A DNA stretch of 59,966 nucleotides, counting the filler, from Asterionella formosa (lineage: Eukaryota), in assembly GCA_002256025.1 (NCBI GenBank). It is 7 parts of 7 records of this genome, joined end to end, with 100 filler letters (N's around TTAATTAATTAA, not from the genome) between each part and the next. Parts side by side here need not be neighbours in the genome. Positions count along the whole stretch, not along the records: positions 34,381 to 42,855 come from NKIB01012161.1; 6 more parts are not named here. One strand, given 5' to 3'. Positions 8,505-57,072 of the stretch are shown here, in pieces. Both the position numbers and the translations under genes were made by a program. Below the pieces are notes generated by a model. That model did not search any database. It saw nothing but the letters and a program-made list of their open reading frames with translations, and had not been told where the DNA came from. Each line of letters begins with the position of its first letter. Positions within the stretch are counted from its first letter, which is position 1.

Positions 8505-8604
8505 NNNNNNNNNNNNNNNNNNNNNNNNNNNNNNNNNNNNNNNNNNNNTTAATTAATTAANNNNNNNNNNNNNNNNNNNNNNNNNNNNNNNNNNNNNNNN
8601 NNNN
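8505..8604. other. Artificial contig spacer (N-run + TTAATTAATTAA + N-run); also at 17104-17203, 25701-25800, 34281-34380, 42856-42955, 51413-51512
   Basis: Identical 100-bp linkers with stops in all six frames. Segment lengths fall monotonically: 8504, 8499, 8497, 8480, 8475, 8457, 8454. Confidence 0.97.
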
Positions 8605-16803: not shown

Positions 16804-17203
16804 AAATGTTGCTGACCAAAGGTGCTTGACGTTGTTGATTTGGTGCAACGAAGCCCATTGTCATTGGCCTTTGCAGGGTTGAAAACGTTCCAAAAATCAT
16901 GATGAGGTTATTTTATGCTATGTAGAGTATAAGTATACCCCGACATATAACATATTAGATAATAATACATAGTATAAGTTGAAACACATAGAGATTCCTG
17001 ATTCCTGATCAGGTTATGAGTGTCAATATATTTCGCCTCTAGTGACCTGATTAGGAACATGTACCACAATCCACTAGATGATTGATTCAAGATCAAATGG
17101 TTANNNNNNNNNNNNNNNNNNNNNNNNNNNNNNNNNNNNNNNNNNNNTTAATTAATTAANNNNNNNNNNNNNNNNNNNNNNNNNNNNNNNNNNNNNNNNN
17201 NNN

Positions 17204-25700: not shown

Positions 25701-26164
25701 NNNNNNNNNNNNNNNNNNNNNNNNNNNNNNNNNNNNNNNNNNNNTTAATTAATTAANNNNNNNNNNNNNNNNNNNNNNNNNNNNNNNNNNNNNNNNNNNN
25801 TATTCAGATAATATATAGATATATTCAAGTAAGCATTTTGATGTATTCAACTAATTCATGTGATCCATTCAAAATCAACTAGGCTTATTTACGTGATGGT
25901 CACTTCACGTAATACGCGGCTTAGATGCAAGACTCGACTAGAAAAAATAATCGGCCCCAGTCAAGCTTGGCCTGGTGCATACTTCAAGCATCACACCCTT
26001 ACTCTCCCCTCTTCACAGCCCCTATGTGACACTCCCTCTTCCATCACCGCCCCTCTTCCTAATACCTCAAATCTCCCTGCATACCCTACATTCTCTGAAT
26101 TTCACCAAAAATCCTTTCACTTTCTCATCATGGCTTCCTACATTTCAACCTGGCCATCATTGCC

Positions 26165-34280: not shown

Positions 34281-34545
34281 NNNNNNNNNNNNNNNNNNNN
34301 NNNNNNNNNNNNNNNNNNNNNNNNTTAATTAATTAANNNNNNNNNNNNNNNNNNNNNNNNNNNNNNNNNNNNNNNNNNNNCATTTTTCCGAAAGTCAAAA
34401 TTGTTCCGCTGGCTACGGAGGTGACCCGATATAACTATTATAAACTGCTGGCATTTATGTACAGTAGATAAGTTTTATGTATATATGCATACTATACACA
34501 ATAATATCGACTGTCAACTAATGAAGATTATGCTATACCAGTGCT

Positions 34546-34848
34546 CTACAGGCCAACGCCCTGACGGGTAGGGCAGACCGAGTACTGGTCAAGACTGGGG
34601 CTGCACACAGTTTTTTAATGAGTGAAAGTTTCACACTACCTCGCCCAGGTGAAGGGGCGGGGTGCACCACTGGACACCAGGTCATTAATGGATGACGGGA
34701 TGCCTCAAAAACATCCCTGAATACGTGAACTGGTGGGAGGAGTTCGAATCCTCCCATGATGCCCCCCAAGCACCCCACATCGATAGGACAGGCGGGCAAA
34801 GCGGCCGGATAGGTTTTCTCCTGGCGTCTTGGAACAGCAAAAAACTGA
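34546..34848 (+). mobile_element. 303-bp GC-rich, highly structured non-coding insertion with 12-bp TSD (putative non-autonomous retroposon; strand inferred from the A-rich end)
   Basis: TATACCAGTGCT is duplicated at 34534-34545 and 34849-34860. The insert has many hairpins, an A-rich 3' end, no TIRs and no recognisable protein. Confidence 0.75.
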
Positions 34849-35019
34849 TATACCAGTGCTTATGTTCTATATATATATACCGGGGGGTATATCGGCTGTT
34901 GACTACTTGCTTACATAGTATAATGAGGACCAGAGGTCGAAGAAAGTAAACTGGAAAGCAGTACTGCTGTATACTGCAGTATTGGATACTGAGACTGCTC
35001 CAGACGCAGTATCAGTATA

Positions 35020-35113
35020 CCAGCAAGTTGCGGTCATTTTGCTTAAATAAGCAATTTAATATGGGAAAAGATAGCTAAATATTTAGTTTCAGCACAATTA
35101 CCGCAACTTGCAG
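35020..35113. mobile_element. Very small MITE with TIR CCAGCAAGTTGCGG; related single ends near 38852, 39064 and 43867
   Basis: TA|CCAGCAAGTTGCGGTCATT...AATTACCGCAACTTGCAG|TA. The same terminus precedes the pogo-like relic at 39064. Confidence 0.65.
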
Positions 35114-35866
35114 TACCTGTATACTGGTATTCTATATTTGTTTCCAAATGCCATACCAGTAGCTATTATTCTAAAATTTGCCAGTTTACTCGTCTAGCTT
35201 GCCAGTAAACTGCTACTATCATGTAGGAATCTCAAAAAAAAATCCGGCATGTCTTTTAAAAGCATTGTAGAGCGAAATCCCTGTTCATAGTTAGTATAAG
35301 GCTAGCAAAAACAAAATGAAAAAACAAAGCTATGTAGTATGCATTAAGCGCAAAATCACATCATCAATTTTGTATATTGCTTTATTATAACTGCCATGAT
35401 TGCCTGCGTCATCTTTAGTTTTCATAGGCTGAAAGAATGAGTGAGTGAGAATGAGAATACTGCTTTGTCAGCAGAATCAGTATACTGGTATACTGTCCTT
35501 TCAATATCGAAATACTCAACTGTATGCCAAGTTAATATGGTGTATCAATATGCTGTATTTCACTAAAAACATCCCACAGTATTTCTTCAGTACAATGTCA
35601 CTGACCTATTTCACAATAAATTCTTTTTGCGGCATTGTTATAAGCTAATATATACCTTGCTTGAGATCTTTTGCTTTAATTAATCATTTTTCCTTTAGTT
35701 GTCAAAGCATCCAAATATAAACAAAAGAAACTATCCTAGCACTATCACAGCAATCCTACTAGCACTAATAAGCGCCCCCTCTCACCATGGAGGCGATGTA
35801 TATTTACAGCGGCAATCAAATCAGACCACTCTTGCTACCAAATCACTACACTGTATGACATAAGCT

Positions 35867-36110
35867 ACAAACACATGAAAGAATGAACAGAAACATCAAG
35901 AAACTCAAGGAGCTGGACAAAAATGACTGAAGCACAACAACATGTATCATTCAATTGAAAAGCGCATTTGTCGATGTTCTGGCATCAGAATCCGGTCTGC
36001 ACTGGCGCTTTGAGCTACATCAAAACTACAGCGTACACAATGAGCAACAAACACATGAAAGAATGAACAGAAACAACAAGAAACTCAAGGAGCTACAAAA
36101 ATGATTGAAT
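35867..36110. repeat. Direct repeat, ~60-bp conserved block at 180-bp spacing
   Basis: ACAAACACATGAAAGAATGAACAGAAAC(AT/AA)CAAGAAACTCAAGGAGCT occurs at ~35867 and ~36047. Confidence 0.8.
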
Positions 36111-36989
36111 TACAACACCTTTTTAAATACCTAATATGCATCATGTTGCCCATTTCAGCAAAATTACCACATTTTACTGGTTTTGCCACTATGATTTAGT
36201 TGTTGTGAGCAACTAGAGGAATCCTGTATCAGCCAGTTCCTGAATTTCATGTAGATGATGGGAAAAACCTAAAATGACCCTCAGGAATGACAGTTTATGT
36301 AAACTAGCTAAAATTCCCAACCTTGTTCTGTTTTTTCCAAAATTGACTGTTCCTCTCTTTCTCACATCATTACTAGACTACCTGTTAAGTTTCAATTTAG
36401 CTGCTTCACACATAGAGTATTGCTAGATGCTCAGCTGCTACAGCTGGGATGTTTCAGATTTGTAACTACAGTAATTTGACTTTGGTTCCTCAAGAAGTTG
36501 TTTTGTGCTATGAGGTTTGACGTGGTATATTTTTAGATATAGGTTAAACCAGTTTTTAAGTGGCATTATTTAGTCATTCTGAAGAATAAGAGACAGTGAA
36601 CAGTTCTCAGTGCTACTGGAGCTGGGTCGGGCAATTCGAAGAGTTTGGAGCATATTCGTGGAAAAGTGACCTAATAAAAGGAAAGTCAAAAAGAGTAAAT
36701 CATGTTTTTTCCACTCCATATTGCAACTGACGCAATGGCTGCAGGTTTTCAATGTCAATAACCATTTCACATGGTACCAATATGTAGTGATGAAATGAGT
36801 TGTAGCCTTATTTGACTATTGGCTCGCATTTACAAACTTCCATTACCTCGCTGATGTTTAAGGCAACACAGATGCTAACAAATATAGTTCGCTCTCGCTC
36901 TAGATATTCAAGCATAAAAGATTGTTTCACCCACAAGATGAATGAAGTGGTAAATCCCATTTCTAAACATGCCATTGTGTGTTGTGACG

Positions 36990-38603
36990 CTAATGCCCTG
37001 TTCCGACATCTCGAACTTGCACACCAACGTTGAAACTGCCAGATTCACGAATCGAAGCAATGCCTCCTGGGATTACTGTGTCTAGTCCCAGCAAAGGTTC
37101 TTCTGGAACAAACGACGACGGGGCCCGCCTGTAAATCTCTTTAACCTTGTCATTATACTGCTTCTCGAATTGATCTTTGAACTCACCATAGTCAATCTGG
37201 CCGTCGCCGTTGCTATCTGCACTCTTTATGATTCCAGCAATATAATCGTCGGAGCAATCCGGCCCCAGAATTTTTCTCAGGTTCATGGCAGAGATGAATC
37301 CGGAGTGATCTTCGTCAAGTACATCAAATGCTTCAACGATACGACGCTCGGCAATTCGCCCTTGTGTTTCTAAGGCGGCAGCCAAGAACTCCGTGTACAT
37401 GATGATTCCATTATGGTTGACATCAACTTCATTGAAGATTGCTTTTATTTCTTCGGCAGTGTAATATCCTGATTCTCCAAGAGCTTCCATGAACTCTTGC
37501 AGGGATATAGATCCAGTGTTTTCCCGGTCGTAATCACCAAATACCTTGCGAAGCTCAAAGATCTCATCTGCGTTAGATCTCTTCGCTATTATATTCAATG
37601 CGACTTTCTTTAAGTCGTTGCAGGCTGCATAATTGACCAAGTTTTTGGCAACATCACTAACAAGCTCAGGATTAGGCTTGGCGTCAGAGAGATCAATCTT
37701 CTTGCACAACCAGCGGTGCTTCAACGCCGTGAATCCATTCAAACGCAGTTGGGGATCAACTTTTAGGAGACTGCGAACAAAATCCTTACTCTCCGCTGAT
37801 CTTGTCTGCCATATCTTGCCCTTGAATTCGACCTTGGCTCGTATTACCTTGGAAACGGTCTCCTCGGGAGTCCTTCCCTGAAAGGGCGGGTCAGATCCTG
37901 ATAACAGCATAAATGCCACAATCCCAAGGGACCACAAATCTGCTTGGGCCGTGTACACGCCTTGCAAGACTTGGGGGCTCATGGTGTACAGTGTTCCTAC
38001 TCGTTCTGTCATTACGTCGTTTTTGCGTAAGAAGCTTTTGGACAAACCAAAATCGATGAGCTTTACCTGCGCATTAGGGGCATCGCTCTCGAACATGATG
38101 TTTTCATACTTGACATCTCGATGAATGACGTTGTGGGAGTGCAAATAGGAGATCGCCGATAAACATTCCTTCACAATCTTGGCAGCCTGTTTTTCCGAAT
38201 ACGGGTGCCTCTTGTAAAGATCTCCCCCGCTACACAACTCCATGACAATAGCCTTTCGATTCTTTAGCTCAAATGTTTCATATACTTTGATAATATTGGG
38301 ATGATCGAGTGCCTTGAGAAGTTTAAGTTCGTTCTCGAGCTCTTCAATGAGATGTTTCTCAACAATGCTCATATCAATCTCCTTCAGGGCATAGAAGTTC
38401 GCATTCGAAGGGCGCCGGCTGTCGTCCATTTGTTTCTTTGGTGTAATAAGGGAAATTTTTGATATCGACCCCACTCCAATGACCTTGACAACTTCGTAGC
38501 TATCTGCAAAATCACGGCCTTTTTGATCTTGCACTAGACGCGTATACAAAATCTCCTCCTCCAGAACCTTGCGCTGCTCGCCTTTACAACAAACAGCTCC
38601 CAT
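36990..38603 (-). CDS. Calcium-dependent protein kinase (CDPK), intronless
   Basis: MGAVCC N-terminus (myristoylation/palmitoylation-like), kinase motifs HRDVKYEN and DFG, a junction domain, and four EF-hands (DRENTGSISLQEF, DVNHNGIIMYTEF, DEDHSGFIS, DSNGDGQIDYGEF). Confidence 0.93.
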   Translation of the reverse strand: MGAVCCKGEQRKVLEEEILYTRLVQDQKGRDFADSYEVVKVIGVGSISKISLITPKKQMDDSRRPSNANFYALKEIDMSIVEKHLIEELENELKLLKALDHPNIIKVYETFELKNRKAIVMELCSGGDLYKRHPYSEKQAAKIVKECLSAISYLHSHNVIHRDVKYENIMFESDAPNAQVKLIDFGLSKSFLRKNDVMTERVGTLYTMSPQVLQGVYTAQADLWSLGIVAFMLLSGSDPPFQGRTPEETVSKVIRAKVEFKGKIWQTRSAESKDFVRSLLKVDPQLRLNGFTALKHRWLCKKIDLSDAKPNPELVSDVAKNLVNYAACNDLKKVALNIIAKRSNADEIFELRKVFGDYDRENTGSISLQEFMEALGESGYYTAEEIKAIFNEVDVNHNGIIMYTEFLAAALETQGRIAERRIVEAFDVLDEDHSGFISAMNLRKILGPDCSDDYIAGIIKSADSNGDGQIDYGEFKDQFEKQYNDKVKEIYRRAPSSFVPEEPLLGLDTVIPGGIASIRESGSFNVGVQVRDVGTGH

Positions 38604-39063
38604 TTCTTATTACAGTGCTTCAACTGATGGTATAGCTCACAAGATACTGTGCCGGATTCTGATTAAAAGCACTGATTTGTGTCGTCCATCTTCATAATTG
38701 CTGTTGTCATCATGTAGTAAATGTCGCCCTCAACAGATGGAATGTATTGGATCAATCAAAATTTATCTCGGACTAAAAAAGTTTGGATGATGACACTACG
38801 ACAATACGCACGTATGCTGCTGGGACACATTCCTATGTACGGTACCTGGTACCAGCAAGTTGCGGTCATTTCGCGGCGCCGGCAAGCACTCATATTCGAC
38901 TCCCCAGTAATATTACTTGAAAATTAAGAAAATTCTAACGGTTTCGCGCTGGCCAATAAATTTCACATTTATCAAAATCCAATTTTAAAGAATAATGAGT
39001 ACCGGTACCTGGTACTTCATTTTAACAGCGGCACACTGGCTGATGACGGGAGGTGCCAGGGTA

Positions 39064-40250
39064 CCAGCAAGTTGCTGTAAAATTGCGGAAATGACAATTT
39101 GGACATCCCGGATACACACGCCTGTAGATCCAAAAAAAATTGTACCATTGAGCCGGCATCTCCCGGAAATGCACATATTGGTTTTAACCGCCACGGACAA
39201 TGTACTATAGCAATAAATGAATCAATTAGTCACTCAAAGTAAATGAATGCAATACTTCTTGAAGGCCAAAAAAATCGCGCCATATTCACATGTGAGACCG
39301 TAATTCACATCAGAAATTGCTTCCGATGCACCACAAAATGAAGCAAATCGCGATCATCTTATTAACAACGATGAAACCTGCAGCAAGAAAAAACCTCAAC
39401 CATCCAAAAAGTACAAGGTAAAACCTAACTCATTGGATAAGACTGTTGTGTTGCTTATTTTAAATGATATAGTAATGGAATTAGAAACTTTAAAGGCAAA
39501 CTACCATATGGTGCAATCTCGAATATTCTTGCATCTAAGGCGGCTACACTGACATTTGGAGTTTTCGACCAAACTGACGGAGTCCCACCCTTCCTTATCC
39601 TTGATGGCCATGGTAGCAGATTCGAGTGACTGTTCCTGCAATACATCAACACAGCTGCAACAAAATGGAACATCTGCATTGGGCTGCCATATGGCACATC
39701 ATACTGGCAAGTTGGGGACAGTCCAGAACGAAATGGGTCATTTATAATGGCACTCACAAAATGCAAGAGAGACTTACTCACCCAAAAGGAAAGGCGCCAT
39801 GCTGCATTTGCTGTTAAAAAGGAAGATATTGTTGACCTGGTGTCGAAAGCATGGGATGAATCATTTGCCCATATCGCTATAAACCAAAAAGCTGTTGCTG
39901 AACAAGGTTGGGGTCCATTGAACTACAACTTGTTGCTCCATCCAGAAATTCAACTGACAAGTACCTCAAATCTGCAAACAGAAACAAACAATATTCAACC
40001 CGCCTCTTCCATTCCCCCATCCGGATTAAACTCAAGACAAGGCATCACTGGAACCCTTGTTGATCAGGTCGCACAGTATCGCAATCGAGAGGATGCTAGA
40101 AACGGAATAAATCTGGATGAATTTGCCCACCAACGAAAAGAAACAGCACTAAGGGCGATTGCAATCAATTAACAATGCACAGCCGGTACTTTTTGGGTCC
40201 TGAAGTGGTCGATGACCAACTAAAATAGGAGAGGCATTCGGAAGAAGTGC
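39064..40250 (+). mobile_element. pogo/Fot1-like DDE transposon relic with internal deletion
   Basis: TIR-like CCAGCAAGTTGC at 39064. The N-terminal GKLPYGAIS is joined almost directly to PFLILDGHGSRFE*LFLQYIN, WNICIGLPYGTSYWQVGDS and VAEQGWGPLNYNLLLHPEI. Confidence 0.75.
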
Positions 40251-40299
40251 AGAGTTGTGATAGCGGCATTTAATTCTGTCTGGGTTTTTTAAACTGCTG

Positions 40300-41040
40300 T
40301 CAGTTTTATTTCGTCGTGAAGAAGCGTGTTGTAGTTCGTTGGTTGCTTATTTGATGCGTTGCTGTTAGTCTCTTGAAAATGCCATGGTGCTTTGTTTGGG
40401 ACGACCAATTGCGCCTGGTGCCGGAGGAAGTTGCGTGGTCTCAATTGCAGCACTATTTTCGTTTGTACTCATGGGGGCGGGGGGGGGGGGGGGGGGGGGG
40501 GGTGGGTGTGGGGGGGGGGGGGGGGGGGGTGGGGGGNNNNNNNNNNACCCCCCCCCCCTCTCACCGGAAAGTTGTGTTTGTTCAGTCTCATACTGATCAG
40601 GTCTATCTGTTAGATAATTGTTTCTCATCTGAGTTAAATGTTACTGTTGTTAAAGTGGATGCAGTAGTGGAGTTTCTGGTTGCAGAAGTAAGTATGCTGC
40701 TAGTTTCAATTTGATTTGCTGGGGAACAATCCAATAGAATTGTAGAATTTAAACCCCCTACTACTAGATCTGTGTCATTGTTGTTCAATTTCTTCAAATG
40801 GTACATCACCATGTCTTTTGTTAGCCACGTAATTTTGCCAGCTTTGCTTGTTTGCTACTAATCTAGTGATAGCACCATATAGTAACACTCCTCCATTGTT
40901 AGCCTTTGTAGCTTCTAGTTCTCTAACAATGTTGTTTAGAACAAGCTTTACTATTTCCTTATCTAGAGTCTTACAAATAACTCTGTACTTTGCTCGATGT
41001 TTGGTGCATCTTTGGTTTGTAATAGTACTACCGGTAAGTA
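40300..41040 (-). pseudogene. N-terminal relic of a related transposase, convergent with the 39064 copy
   Basis: Contains NNGGVLLYGAITRLV (compare GKLPYGAISNIL) and the AT-hook-like IGRPKQST. It is interrupted by a poly-G/N tract. Confidence 0.45.
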
Positions 41041-42267
41041 CTGGTAGAAAGATCCGAAAATATGAAAATATAGTATTTTGTGATTGTTTCCAGAGCATTT
41101 CAGGATGCATATATTTATGTTGACAGTACAAAATCACTTGATATCCATGGTGCGAACTATCGTGCATGTTTAAATTGGGATGTTGCACACAACTGCACCA
41201 TAATAATTGTCCTCCTGAAGAAAAGCGTTAAAGATACCCATATTAATTTGGAATATAAAACTTTAAATAATAATGTATATGAAGATAAAATGTCGGCCCA
41301 GCTAAACAAGGTAATTTTATTTTCTTTCGATGTGCCTCACTCAACATTTTTGTGGTCGTTTGTCTCAACAACTGGAACACAGCATCGATTGGGCGTCAAG
41401 ACATCCTTTATGTAGATGCATAAAACAAACGACTTGTTCATAGCAAATATCGTCATATTGCTAAAATTGAAAAGTTTCTAGTACAAAATGTAAGATTACC
41501 CCATTATAGTGGTCTAAGCAGTTCATAGTGGTCTTAAGCAGTTTTTGACTGTGTACCAGCAGGTACCGCCCACTCACACACTACTTATCTATTTATTGTC
41601 CAGTTCATGCTTTGTGCGTGCGTCATGCTAGTAAACCACCAGCTGCACTACCTTTCACTACCTACGGCAAAAATGGTAGTATTGGGGGTAGAATTAATTG
41701 TCAATAGTGGCACAGTACCAGCACCGGTATCAACAACGTCATATGACATGCTGGTGTAGTTACAGGAAATGAAAGAGGAATATGGAATATTTGGCAACCA
41801 CTTCGTGTATTTTCGTGAAGTTAAATAATTTCTATTTCGTCATACCGGTATTAATTGCCCTTGTCCCATCAGTCACAGTTTAAGGTTCCTGCATTTGAAC
41901 CCCTAGGCAAAAATTAAAATATTGCTTAGGGTTGCCGAAATTCCCTGGAACTAAGAACTTTTATGTGCTAGTTTGAATATCAATGATTCCGTTTGAAAAA
42001 TTCAAATGAGTGGAAATTTGCGCGTACGTATATAGATTCCATTTCAAATGCATAAAATATGTAAAGATAGATTCTTCATCGCTGAATGTTTTATATTGCT
42101 ACTCTACCGATAGTATACCTACTCGTATCATAAATATGTTTCACATGCACGACCCGGCGGCTGCAAAATATATTTGAATGTGCAAACTATCGGTACTAAG
42201 GGACTGGTTAGCGTGCACTACCATTTACTATGACGAATGATGATCAGTTACCTGGAACCGGTAGGTC

Positions 42268-42371
42268 TACCCGGTTCTCGGTATTCCTACTCCGTACGGA
42301 TTCCGGTATACGGGTAAACCTACCCGGTACTCGATATTCCCACTCCGTACGGATACCGGTATACGGGTAGG
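42268..42371. repeat. Tandem pair of 52-bp units, each bounded by TACCCG...CGGGTA
   Basis: CTACCCGGTTCTCGGTATTCCTACTCCGTACGGATTCCGGTATACGGGTA is followed by a near-identical copy. Confidence 0.8.
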
Positions 42372-42734
42372 ATCAGCCAACACCCAAGAAAATGCTTCAT
42401 GTGTATCCAGTGTGGCCGGCGTGGGATTGCACGACCTCGCAAACCGTGCCAATCGAACGGATGTAAGGATAACCAATCAGAATATGATTATTACAGCGGG
42501 CAATTACATTGGAACTTTTTGTACACGAGATTTTACGACTACAAATTTTAGCACAAGACTACCATTCCGATGATGACGTTTCGGCGATTAGTGATTCTGA
42601 TTCCGACGTTTGGGTGACCGTTGAAAAGGCCGATATTGTCGAATTTTTGGACGACGATAGCTCAACGTTGGCAGGGTTTGAAGAAGAGTTAAATACATAG
42701 GAAATCTTCATATAGCCCCAGAAGTTAACTTTCG

Positions 42735-42855
42735 GCGAGAAACTGCAGAAAGGAACTTCGGTTTTTTTACTAGGCCAAATAAACGAGTTAGCCCGGTAAA
42801 ATCCACTATTTTCAGCATAGTTAAAAAACCGAAGTTCCTTTCTGCAGTTTCTCGC
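42735..42855. repeat. Long inverted repeat (33-bp perfect arms)
   Basis: GCGAGAAACTGCAGAAAGGAACTTCGGTTTTTT ... AAAAAACCGAAGTTCCTTTCTGCAGTTTCTCGC. A homologous hairpin lies at ~45506-45622. Confidence 0.9.
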
Positions 42856-42955
42856 NNNNNNNNNNNNNNNNNNNNNNNNNNNNNNNNNNNNNNNNNNNNT
42901 TAATTAATTAANNNNNNNNNNNNNNNNNNNNNNNNNNNNNNNNNNNNNNNNNNNN

Positions 42956-51412: not shown

Positions 51413-51512
51413 NNNNNNNNNNNNNNNNNNNNNNNNNNNNNNNNNNNNNNNNNNNNTTAATTAATTAANNNNNNNNNNNNNNNNNNNNNNNNNNNNNNNN
51501 NNNNNNNNNNNN

Positions 51513-56370: not shown

Positions 56371-57072
56371 NNNNNNNNNNNNNNNNNNNNNNNNNNNNNN
56401 NNNNNNNNNNNNNNNNNNNNNNNNNNNNNNNNNNNNNNNNNNNNNNNNNNNNNNNNNNNNNNNNNNNNNNNNNNNNNNNNNNNNNNNNNNNNNNNNNNNN
56501 NNNNNNNNNNNNNNNNNNNNNNNNNNNNNNNNNNNNNNNNNNNNNNNNNNNNNNNNNNNNNNNNNNNNNNNNNNNNNNNNNNNNNNNNNNNNNNNNNNNN
56601 NNNNNNNNNNNNNNNNNNNNNNNNNNNNNNNNNNNNNNNNNNNNNNNNNNNNNNNNNNNNNNNNNNNNNNNNNNNNNNNNNNNNNNNNNNNNNNNNNNNN
56701 NNNNNNNNNNNNNNNNNNNNNNNNNNNNNNNNNNNNNNNNNNNNNNNNNNNNNNNNNNNNNNNNNNNNNNNNNNNNNNNNNNNNNNNNNNNNNNNNNNNN
56801 NNNNNNNNNNNNNNNNNNNNNNNNNNNNNNNNNNNNNNNNNNNNNNNNNNNNNNNNNNNNNNNNNNNNNNNNNNNNNNNNNNNNNNNNNNNNNNNNNNNN
56901 NNNNNNNNNNNNNNNNNNNNNNNNNNNNNNNNNNNNNNNNNNNNNNNNNNNNNNNNNNNNNNNNNNNNNNNNNNNNNNNNNNNNNNNNNNNNNNNNNNNN
57001 NNNNNNNNNNNNNNNNNNNNNNNNNNNNNNNNNNNNNNNNNNNNNNNNNNNNNNNNNNNNNNNNNNNNNNNN

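Follow-up and report, generated by a model that had tools for sequence, protein, structure and literature searches.

The window analyzed here, that is, the whole stretch of 59,966 bases from the diatom Asterionella formosa, is composed of seven pieces of about 8.5 kb, whose order does not imply adjacency in the genome and which are divided by identical spacers (Table 1). The feature under study is a short insert that starts 153 nt into the piece at 34381-42855. Its flanks are AT-rich and non-coding and, apart from frames lying on the insert itself, contain no reading frame of at least 90 aa; further along the same piece lies a gene of the calcium-dependent protein kinase type, whose lack of introns is compatible with a protist genome. 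On the right side of the insert, a TA-bounded micro-insertion, CCGGGGGG, is found within a TA run at 34868-34890, followed by a second repeat of about 95 bp, which looks like a MITE of the Stowaway/Tc1-mariner type. This repeat is more abundant than the insert (summed depth, which is not a copy number, of up to 2.65 million in the sequencing run X1 described below), shows sharp clusters of loose contig ends at 35018 and 35111-35113 with differing flanks, gives weak matches to microRNA precursors in Rfam (E = 0.6-5), and is related to fragments at window positions 38850, 39062 and 43867.

Table 1. Features of the window and of one metagenome locus (L006). Positions are those of the window unless a locus is named.
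Feature	Position	Strand	Remarks
Spacers (N44 + 12-base linker + N44)	8505-8604, 17104-17203, 25701-25800, 34281-34380, 42856-42955, 51413-51512		identical
Run of 702 N	56371-57072		
Target site duplication (TSD), left copy	34531-34545	.	perfect 12-mer from 34534; 15-mer with one mismatch from 34531
LINE ORF remnant	34545-34571	+	last 8 codons and stop, STGQRPDG*; same C-terminus as P0001
LINE 3′ UTR	34572-34838	+	92% identical to family consensus
Hairpin, 10-bp stem (one G-U), 8-nt loop	34637-34664	+	stem identical in 7/7 aligned copies
Hairpin, 9-bp stem, 7-nt loop ("T-loop-like")	34733-34757	+	invariant in 7/7 aligned copies
A-tail remnant	34839-34848	+	A6 then CTGA; A8-A15 in relatives
TSD, right copy	34846-34860	.	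perfect 12-mer 34849-34860
Second repeat, about 95 bp	35018-35113		inverted ends, TA at both sides
Intron-less frame of 538 aa	36990-38606	-	protein kinase domain and four EF hands, calcium-dependent protein kinase type; start MGAVCC
Tandem second LINE-tail copy	L006, 1-60	- (of locus)	beside copy at 59-360

The insert is bounded by a direct repeat that has the perfect 12-mer TATACCAGTGCT at its core and can be extended to 15 nt at the cost of one mismatch (14/15), and no inverted repeat joins its ends. Both this perfect 12-bp duplication and the GC-rich island between its copies, already pointed out in a first-pass annotation of the same DNA, were recovered, the G+C content being 55% in the 303 nt between the repeats against 36-39% in the surrounding 1-kb bins. 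The chance that the left 12-mer recurs within 10 nt of the right edge of such an insert is about 6e-7 (analytic). Furthermore, the edges are backed independently by the homology to relatives described below, which spans 34544-34844, and by contig depth, which changes at the same limits.

The scanning of metagenome contigs with a 20-mer taken from the 9-bp hairpin returned nine loci, six of which match window 34544-34844 at 91.4-92.4% identity along 301-302 nt, while the other three have just the 20-mer in common with the insert. All six relatives continue upstream, with a mutual identity of 98.4-99.8% over 1001-1721 nt, and this upstream DNA is a frame of 444 aa that is still open at the locus edge on its 5′ side and whose stop corresponds to window 34569-34571. 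The short coding remnant of the insert (Table 1) translates into the same residues that end the 444-aa frame. A search for longer proteins gave ten matches, the best of which, P0001, measures 1475 aa, is 97% identical and represents a cluster of 222 member sequences. Among the other matches, P0002-P0004 reach 71-76% protein identity, and P0005, P0006 and P0008 40-53%. The domains RVT_1 and Exo_endo_phos are precomputed in nine of the ten matched proteins, and a domain scan confirmed both of them, a reverse transcriptase (RT) and an endonuclease domain, in all three proteins tested. Among solved structures, the best relative of the encoded protein is human LINE-1 ORF2p (E = 1.3e-25), with R2 proteins behind it at 7e-14; structures of RTE, CR1 or Jockey elements are not there for comparison. 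A language-model protein atlas returned endonuclease-RT clusters only. In the parent frame, the N-terminal 220 aa or so match no Pfam family and a Cys/His motif follows the RT. The 5′ two thirds of the parent are known from proteins alone, no full-length DNA copy in one piece having been seen. No second copy or other fragment of the LINE was found in the window by blastn or by tblastn with the ten proteins. Viral contigs gave no match to the 20-mer and, when compared with the protein alignment, 14 pattern matches, none of which was confirmed as a relative; five bacterial genome records carry the 20-mer only, none of them with a tRNA at that place, and were set aside as chance matches.

Measured against this parent, the insert is truncated on its 5′ side at 34544-34546, keeping only the last eight of about 1475 codons ahead of the stop, with the 3′ end intact. 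Bases 34544-34545 are common to the end of the left repeat and to the LINE, leaving a 2-nt ambiguity or a microhomology at the 5′ junction. The insert thus comprises the end of the ORF, the 3′ UTR and the A tail, i.e., the 3′ end of a LINE, and an origin from an RTE-like 5′ UTR, as first suggested, does not hold. In the relatives, tails of A8-A15 are followed by unrelated flanks, whereas the window copy ends in A6 and CTGA without a clean poly(A), which is a counterpoint to its reading as a LINE. The whole insert is also spanned by an antisense frame of 108 aa, which was rejected as a gene: it has no Pfam family, and a 1-nt indel shifts it in five of the six relatives.

The homology to an element encoding RT and endonuclease, the ORF remnant, the A tails of the relatives abutting the target, the TSD without terminal inverted repeats and the repetition documented below lead us to the conclusion that the insert is, very probably, a 5′-truncated, dead-on-arrival copy of a high-copy APE-type LINE of A. 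formosa. Such 5′-truncated insertions are known for poly(A)-tailed LINEs of the APE type, e.g., L1 in animals and plants. Like them, the Asterionella family has a parent combining endonuclease and RT in one ORF, an A tail and a high copy number, and the insert shows 5′-side truncation, a TSD of the variable-length kind without inverted ends and, possibly, 2-nt microhomology at the 5′ junction; unlike them, the family resides in a diatom, its parent consists of one ORF, about 1475 aa long, whose first 220 aa or so lie outside the Pfam families, and the tail of the window copy is A6 plus CTGA.

The insertion would have occurred by target-primed retrotransposition, a mechanism that was already put forward from the long TSD without terminal inverted repeats and that is supported by the TSD together with the high repetition. 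In this process, the LINE endonuclease would nick the target and the RT would prime on the nick and reverse-transcribe the polyadenylated LINE RNA, beginning at the 3′ end; either this copying or the joining step would then halt some 27 nt upstream of the stop codon, and the repair of a staggered second nick would duplicate 12-15 bp of the target. Left over are eight codons and the stop, the 3′ UTR of about 270 nt and a short A run. The window copy lacks coding capacity and is in all likelihood inert. As to the TSD, only one other copy, L002, has both flanks visible; it shows no adjacent duplication (an 8-mer lying 40 nt off was rejected), so that a TSD is present in one of the two testable copies, the one in the window.

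To follow the repetition of the insert, Logan contigs of four DNA runs (X1, X2, X3 and X7, from four studies) were placed on 34381-35400. The summed contig depths, which are not copy numbers, were to the left of the insert, inside it (34551-34856) and to its right, respectively, 1.2k-3.7k, 33k-1,027k and 0.7k-3k in X1; 7.5-118, 527-2,164 and 0 in X2; 195-724, 3.5k-339k and 0 in X3; and 0-161, 17-2,988 and 0 in X7. From these profiles the sequence is seen to be highly repeated, with limits that match those of the direct repeat. The left junction is bridged by one X2 contig (record 9) with a single differing letter, and no empty-site allele was seen, no contig in the four runs skipping the insert. 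In X2 and X7, the loose contig ends preceding 34544 (two contigs each, agreement 0.98) enter the LINE coding sequence, and in X2 those behind 34844 are A-rich.

Out of 297 aligned places, the window copy departs from the consensus of the six relatives at 23, through 15 transitions, 7 transversions and 1 indel. At 11 of these 23 places more than 92% of the X1 depth has the consensus letter, which identifies the metagenome form as the main family in the runs. Eight of the differences are clustered at 34666-34688, and at five of them (34678-34688) nearly all of the placeable X1 depth matches the letters of the window copy, implying that this patch marks a smaller replicated subfamily and not decay in place. 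The 27 coding bases contain three differences, all in third position and synonymous, which hints at divergence within an active lineage, even if three sites are few. The family as a whole looks recently active, judging from the near-identity (98-99.8%) of its copies in metagenome contigs.

Beside the six main alignments, locus L006 contains a second copy of the LINE tail directly behind the A8 tail of its long copy, in head-to-tail arrangement. The start of this second copy corresponds to window 34551, 5-7 nt from that of the window copy, so that two of the seven distinct copies begin nearly at the same place, just upstream of the stop codon; this may be due to chance or to a preference for stopping close to that codon. 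On these grounds a SINE-like subfamily could be envisaged, consisting of the 3′ UTR only, in which a unit of about 300 nt is the preferred product and depends on the LINE for amplification in trans. The depth, which is high as early as the first bin of the insert, and the replicated patch at 34678-34688 would also agree with it. However, four of the six other distinct copies extend far into the ORF, a further one has its truncation about 1.1 kb from the tail, long copies, too, give a flat depth along the final 300 nt, and the starts of copies are not visible from contigs. SINEs that share a LINE 3′ tail resemble the insert in being short, in high copy number and mobilized by target-primed reverse transcription, but the insert starts inside the LINE coding sequence, with neither a Pol III promoter head (tRNA, 7SL or 5S) nor a discrete shared 5′ end distinct from the LINE body, and Rfam and ARAGORN recognize in it neither a tRNA nor another RNA of Pol III type. 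We therefore regard a SINE-like subfamily as quite unlikely, and the discrete non-autonomous element of the first-pass annotation gives way to the truncated LINE tail. As a separate observation, a perfect direct repeat of 75 nt lies downstream of the LINE tail in L001 and L009 (L001 1680-1838, in LINE-oriented coordinates), and an 85%-similar stretch is also found behind the tail in L003 (1024-1078); another repeat family thus seems to sit next to several of the LINE insertions.

The first-pass annotation had assigned to the insert an almost continuous fold and, as a possibility, an RNA motif not described before, and a mobile element with a functional structured RNA or a self-cleaving ribozyme has to be weighed accordingly. 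Ribozymes are known in the 5′ UTRs of R2- and RTE-type elements, and hammerhead ribozymes in retrozymes; the insert shares with them that it is part of a retroelement and has G+C-rich hairpins, but it is a 3′ end and matches no ribozyme model. Rfam returned no ribozyme or other family at E ≤ 10, either within the insert or in the 3′ UTR of a relative. All nine complementary string pairs of the proposed structure were found, once each, but the folding does not go beyond chance, and the helices formed by CTGGTG and by TGGGAGGA overlap by two bases (34734-34735), which makes the full formation of both impossible. The minimum free energy of the window copy has a z of -1.59 on the + strand, where 8 of 100 shuffles fold as well, and of -2.54 on the - strand, while the 3′ UTR of the family itself (-99.6 against a shuffle mean of -99.9 kcal/mol) has a z of 0.06, 100 of 200 shuffles folding equally well. 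Stems of at least 10 bp, the longest length in the insert, are produced by 11-13% of shuffles (11% when 1000 dinucleotide shuffles are used).

The comparison of copies, which comprise two lineages only (92% alike) and hence give it very low power, provides no compensatory change for the proposed helices: among the 57 pairs left after removing the 2-nt overlap, none has changed on both sides, a value equalled by 500 of 500 shuffles. In two of the helices, four one-sided changes turn a G-U into a Watson-Crick pair; they fit an RNA of the + strand only and would speak for a structure, as would the invariance of the two hairpins in all seven copies, but 92% of all alignment columns are likewise invariant. 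With respect to the RNAalifold consensus (83 pairs), the changes of the window copy keep seven pairs, one of them by a double change, and break seven. The window copy has stronger forms of helices 1, 3, 4 and 7 than the relatives and their consensus, as is to be expected of a structure that was drawn from it. The long-range helix thought to close the 3′ end amounts in the relatives to no more than a U run opposite the poly(A) tail: in all six, four of its nine pairs do not form and a fifth coincides with a gap, the CAG/CTG part being private to the window copy. Tail-protecting triple-helix elements are built on U runs that pair with the A tail; such an element was considered here and discarded, there being one U run only, with the flanking CAG/CTG private to the window copy. 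On balance, a functional structured RNA or a ribozyme is regarded as very improbable.

The hairpins singled out in the first-pass annotation are features of the G+C-rich 3′ UTR of the LINE. The stem carrying GTTCGAA, described as 8 bp long with a T-loop-like loop, is a real hairpin, with a stem of 9 bp, and its 7-nt loop resembles a tRNA T-loop loosely; no tRNA or tRNA-like model matches it, and ARAGORN found no tRNA gene in the whole window or in loci L001 and L004. In the hairpin at 34637-34664, the loop measures 9 nt in five relatives that carry one extra G. Certain LINEs require a 3′ stem-loop for recognition by their own RT and, by analogy, this could be the most sensible role of the two hairpins if they matter at all. 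That they act in cis as the signal for RT recognition and, combined with a preferred stop, have given rise in diatoms to a self-contained "tail-only" class of retroposons of about 300 nt appears to us quite unlikely.

Poly(A) tails, a 3′ UTR of 270 nt and a Cys/His motif behind the RT, all found in the Asterionella LINE, are untypical of RTE elements. An RTE-like non-LTR family is mentioned for Thalassiosira pseudonana in the consulted part of Maumus et al. (2009; PMC2806351) and, compared by description only, shares with the Asterionella family the diatom host and the nature of non-LTR retrotransposon. An introner-type insertion that created an intron is extremely improbable for the insert, since, in spite of the non-LTR-derived introners of other protists (dinoflagellates, in the consulted part of PMC12130899) and of a GT within the duplicated 12-mer on both strands, its AT-rich, non-coding flanks have no frames of at least 90 aa and, on reading by eye, no GT...AG pair on either strand excises it exactly together with one repeat copy.

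The insert is therefore a case of ordinary transposon biology and not a new structured mobile RNA: a G+C-rich 3′ UTR within AT-rich DNA appears structured by eye, yet folds like its shuffles. That it might turn out to be a truncated fragment of a known element, named in the first-pass annotation as what would speak against its proposal, is essentially what was found, with the qualification that the LINE family is without a name in the sources consulted, the element type itself being known. Marine plankton metagenomes are rich in non-LTR RTs, according to the consulted part of PMC5029228, and diatom non-LTR elements receive brief mention only in the literature consulted (PMC2806351, in part); a limited search of the literature brought up no description of the Asterionella family. 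The truncated copy in the window belongs to a poly(A)-tailed LINE family of the APE type that is abundant in a freshwater diatom; its import lies mainly in annotation, as a curated consensus of this LINE would lead to better repeat masking of diatom genomes.
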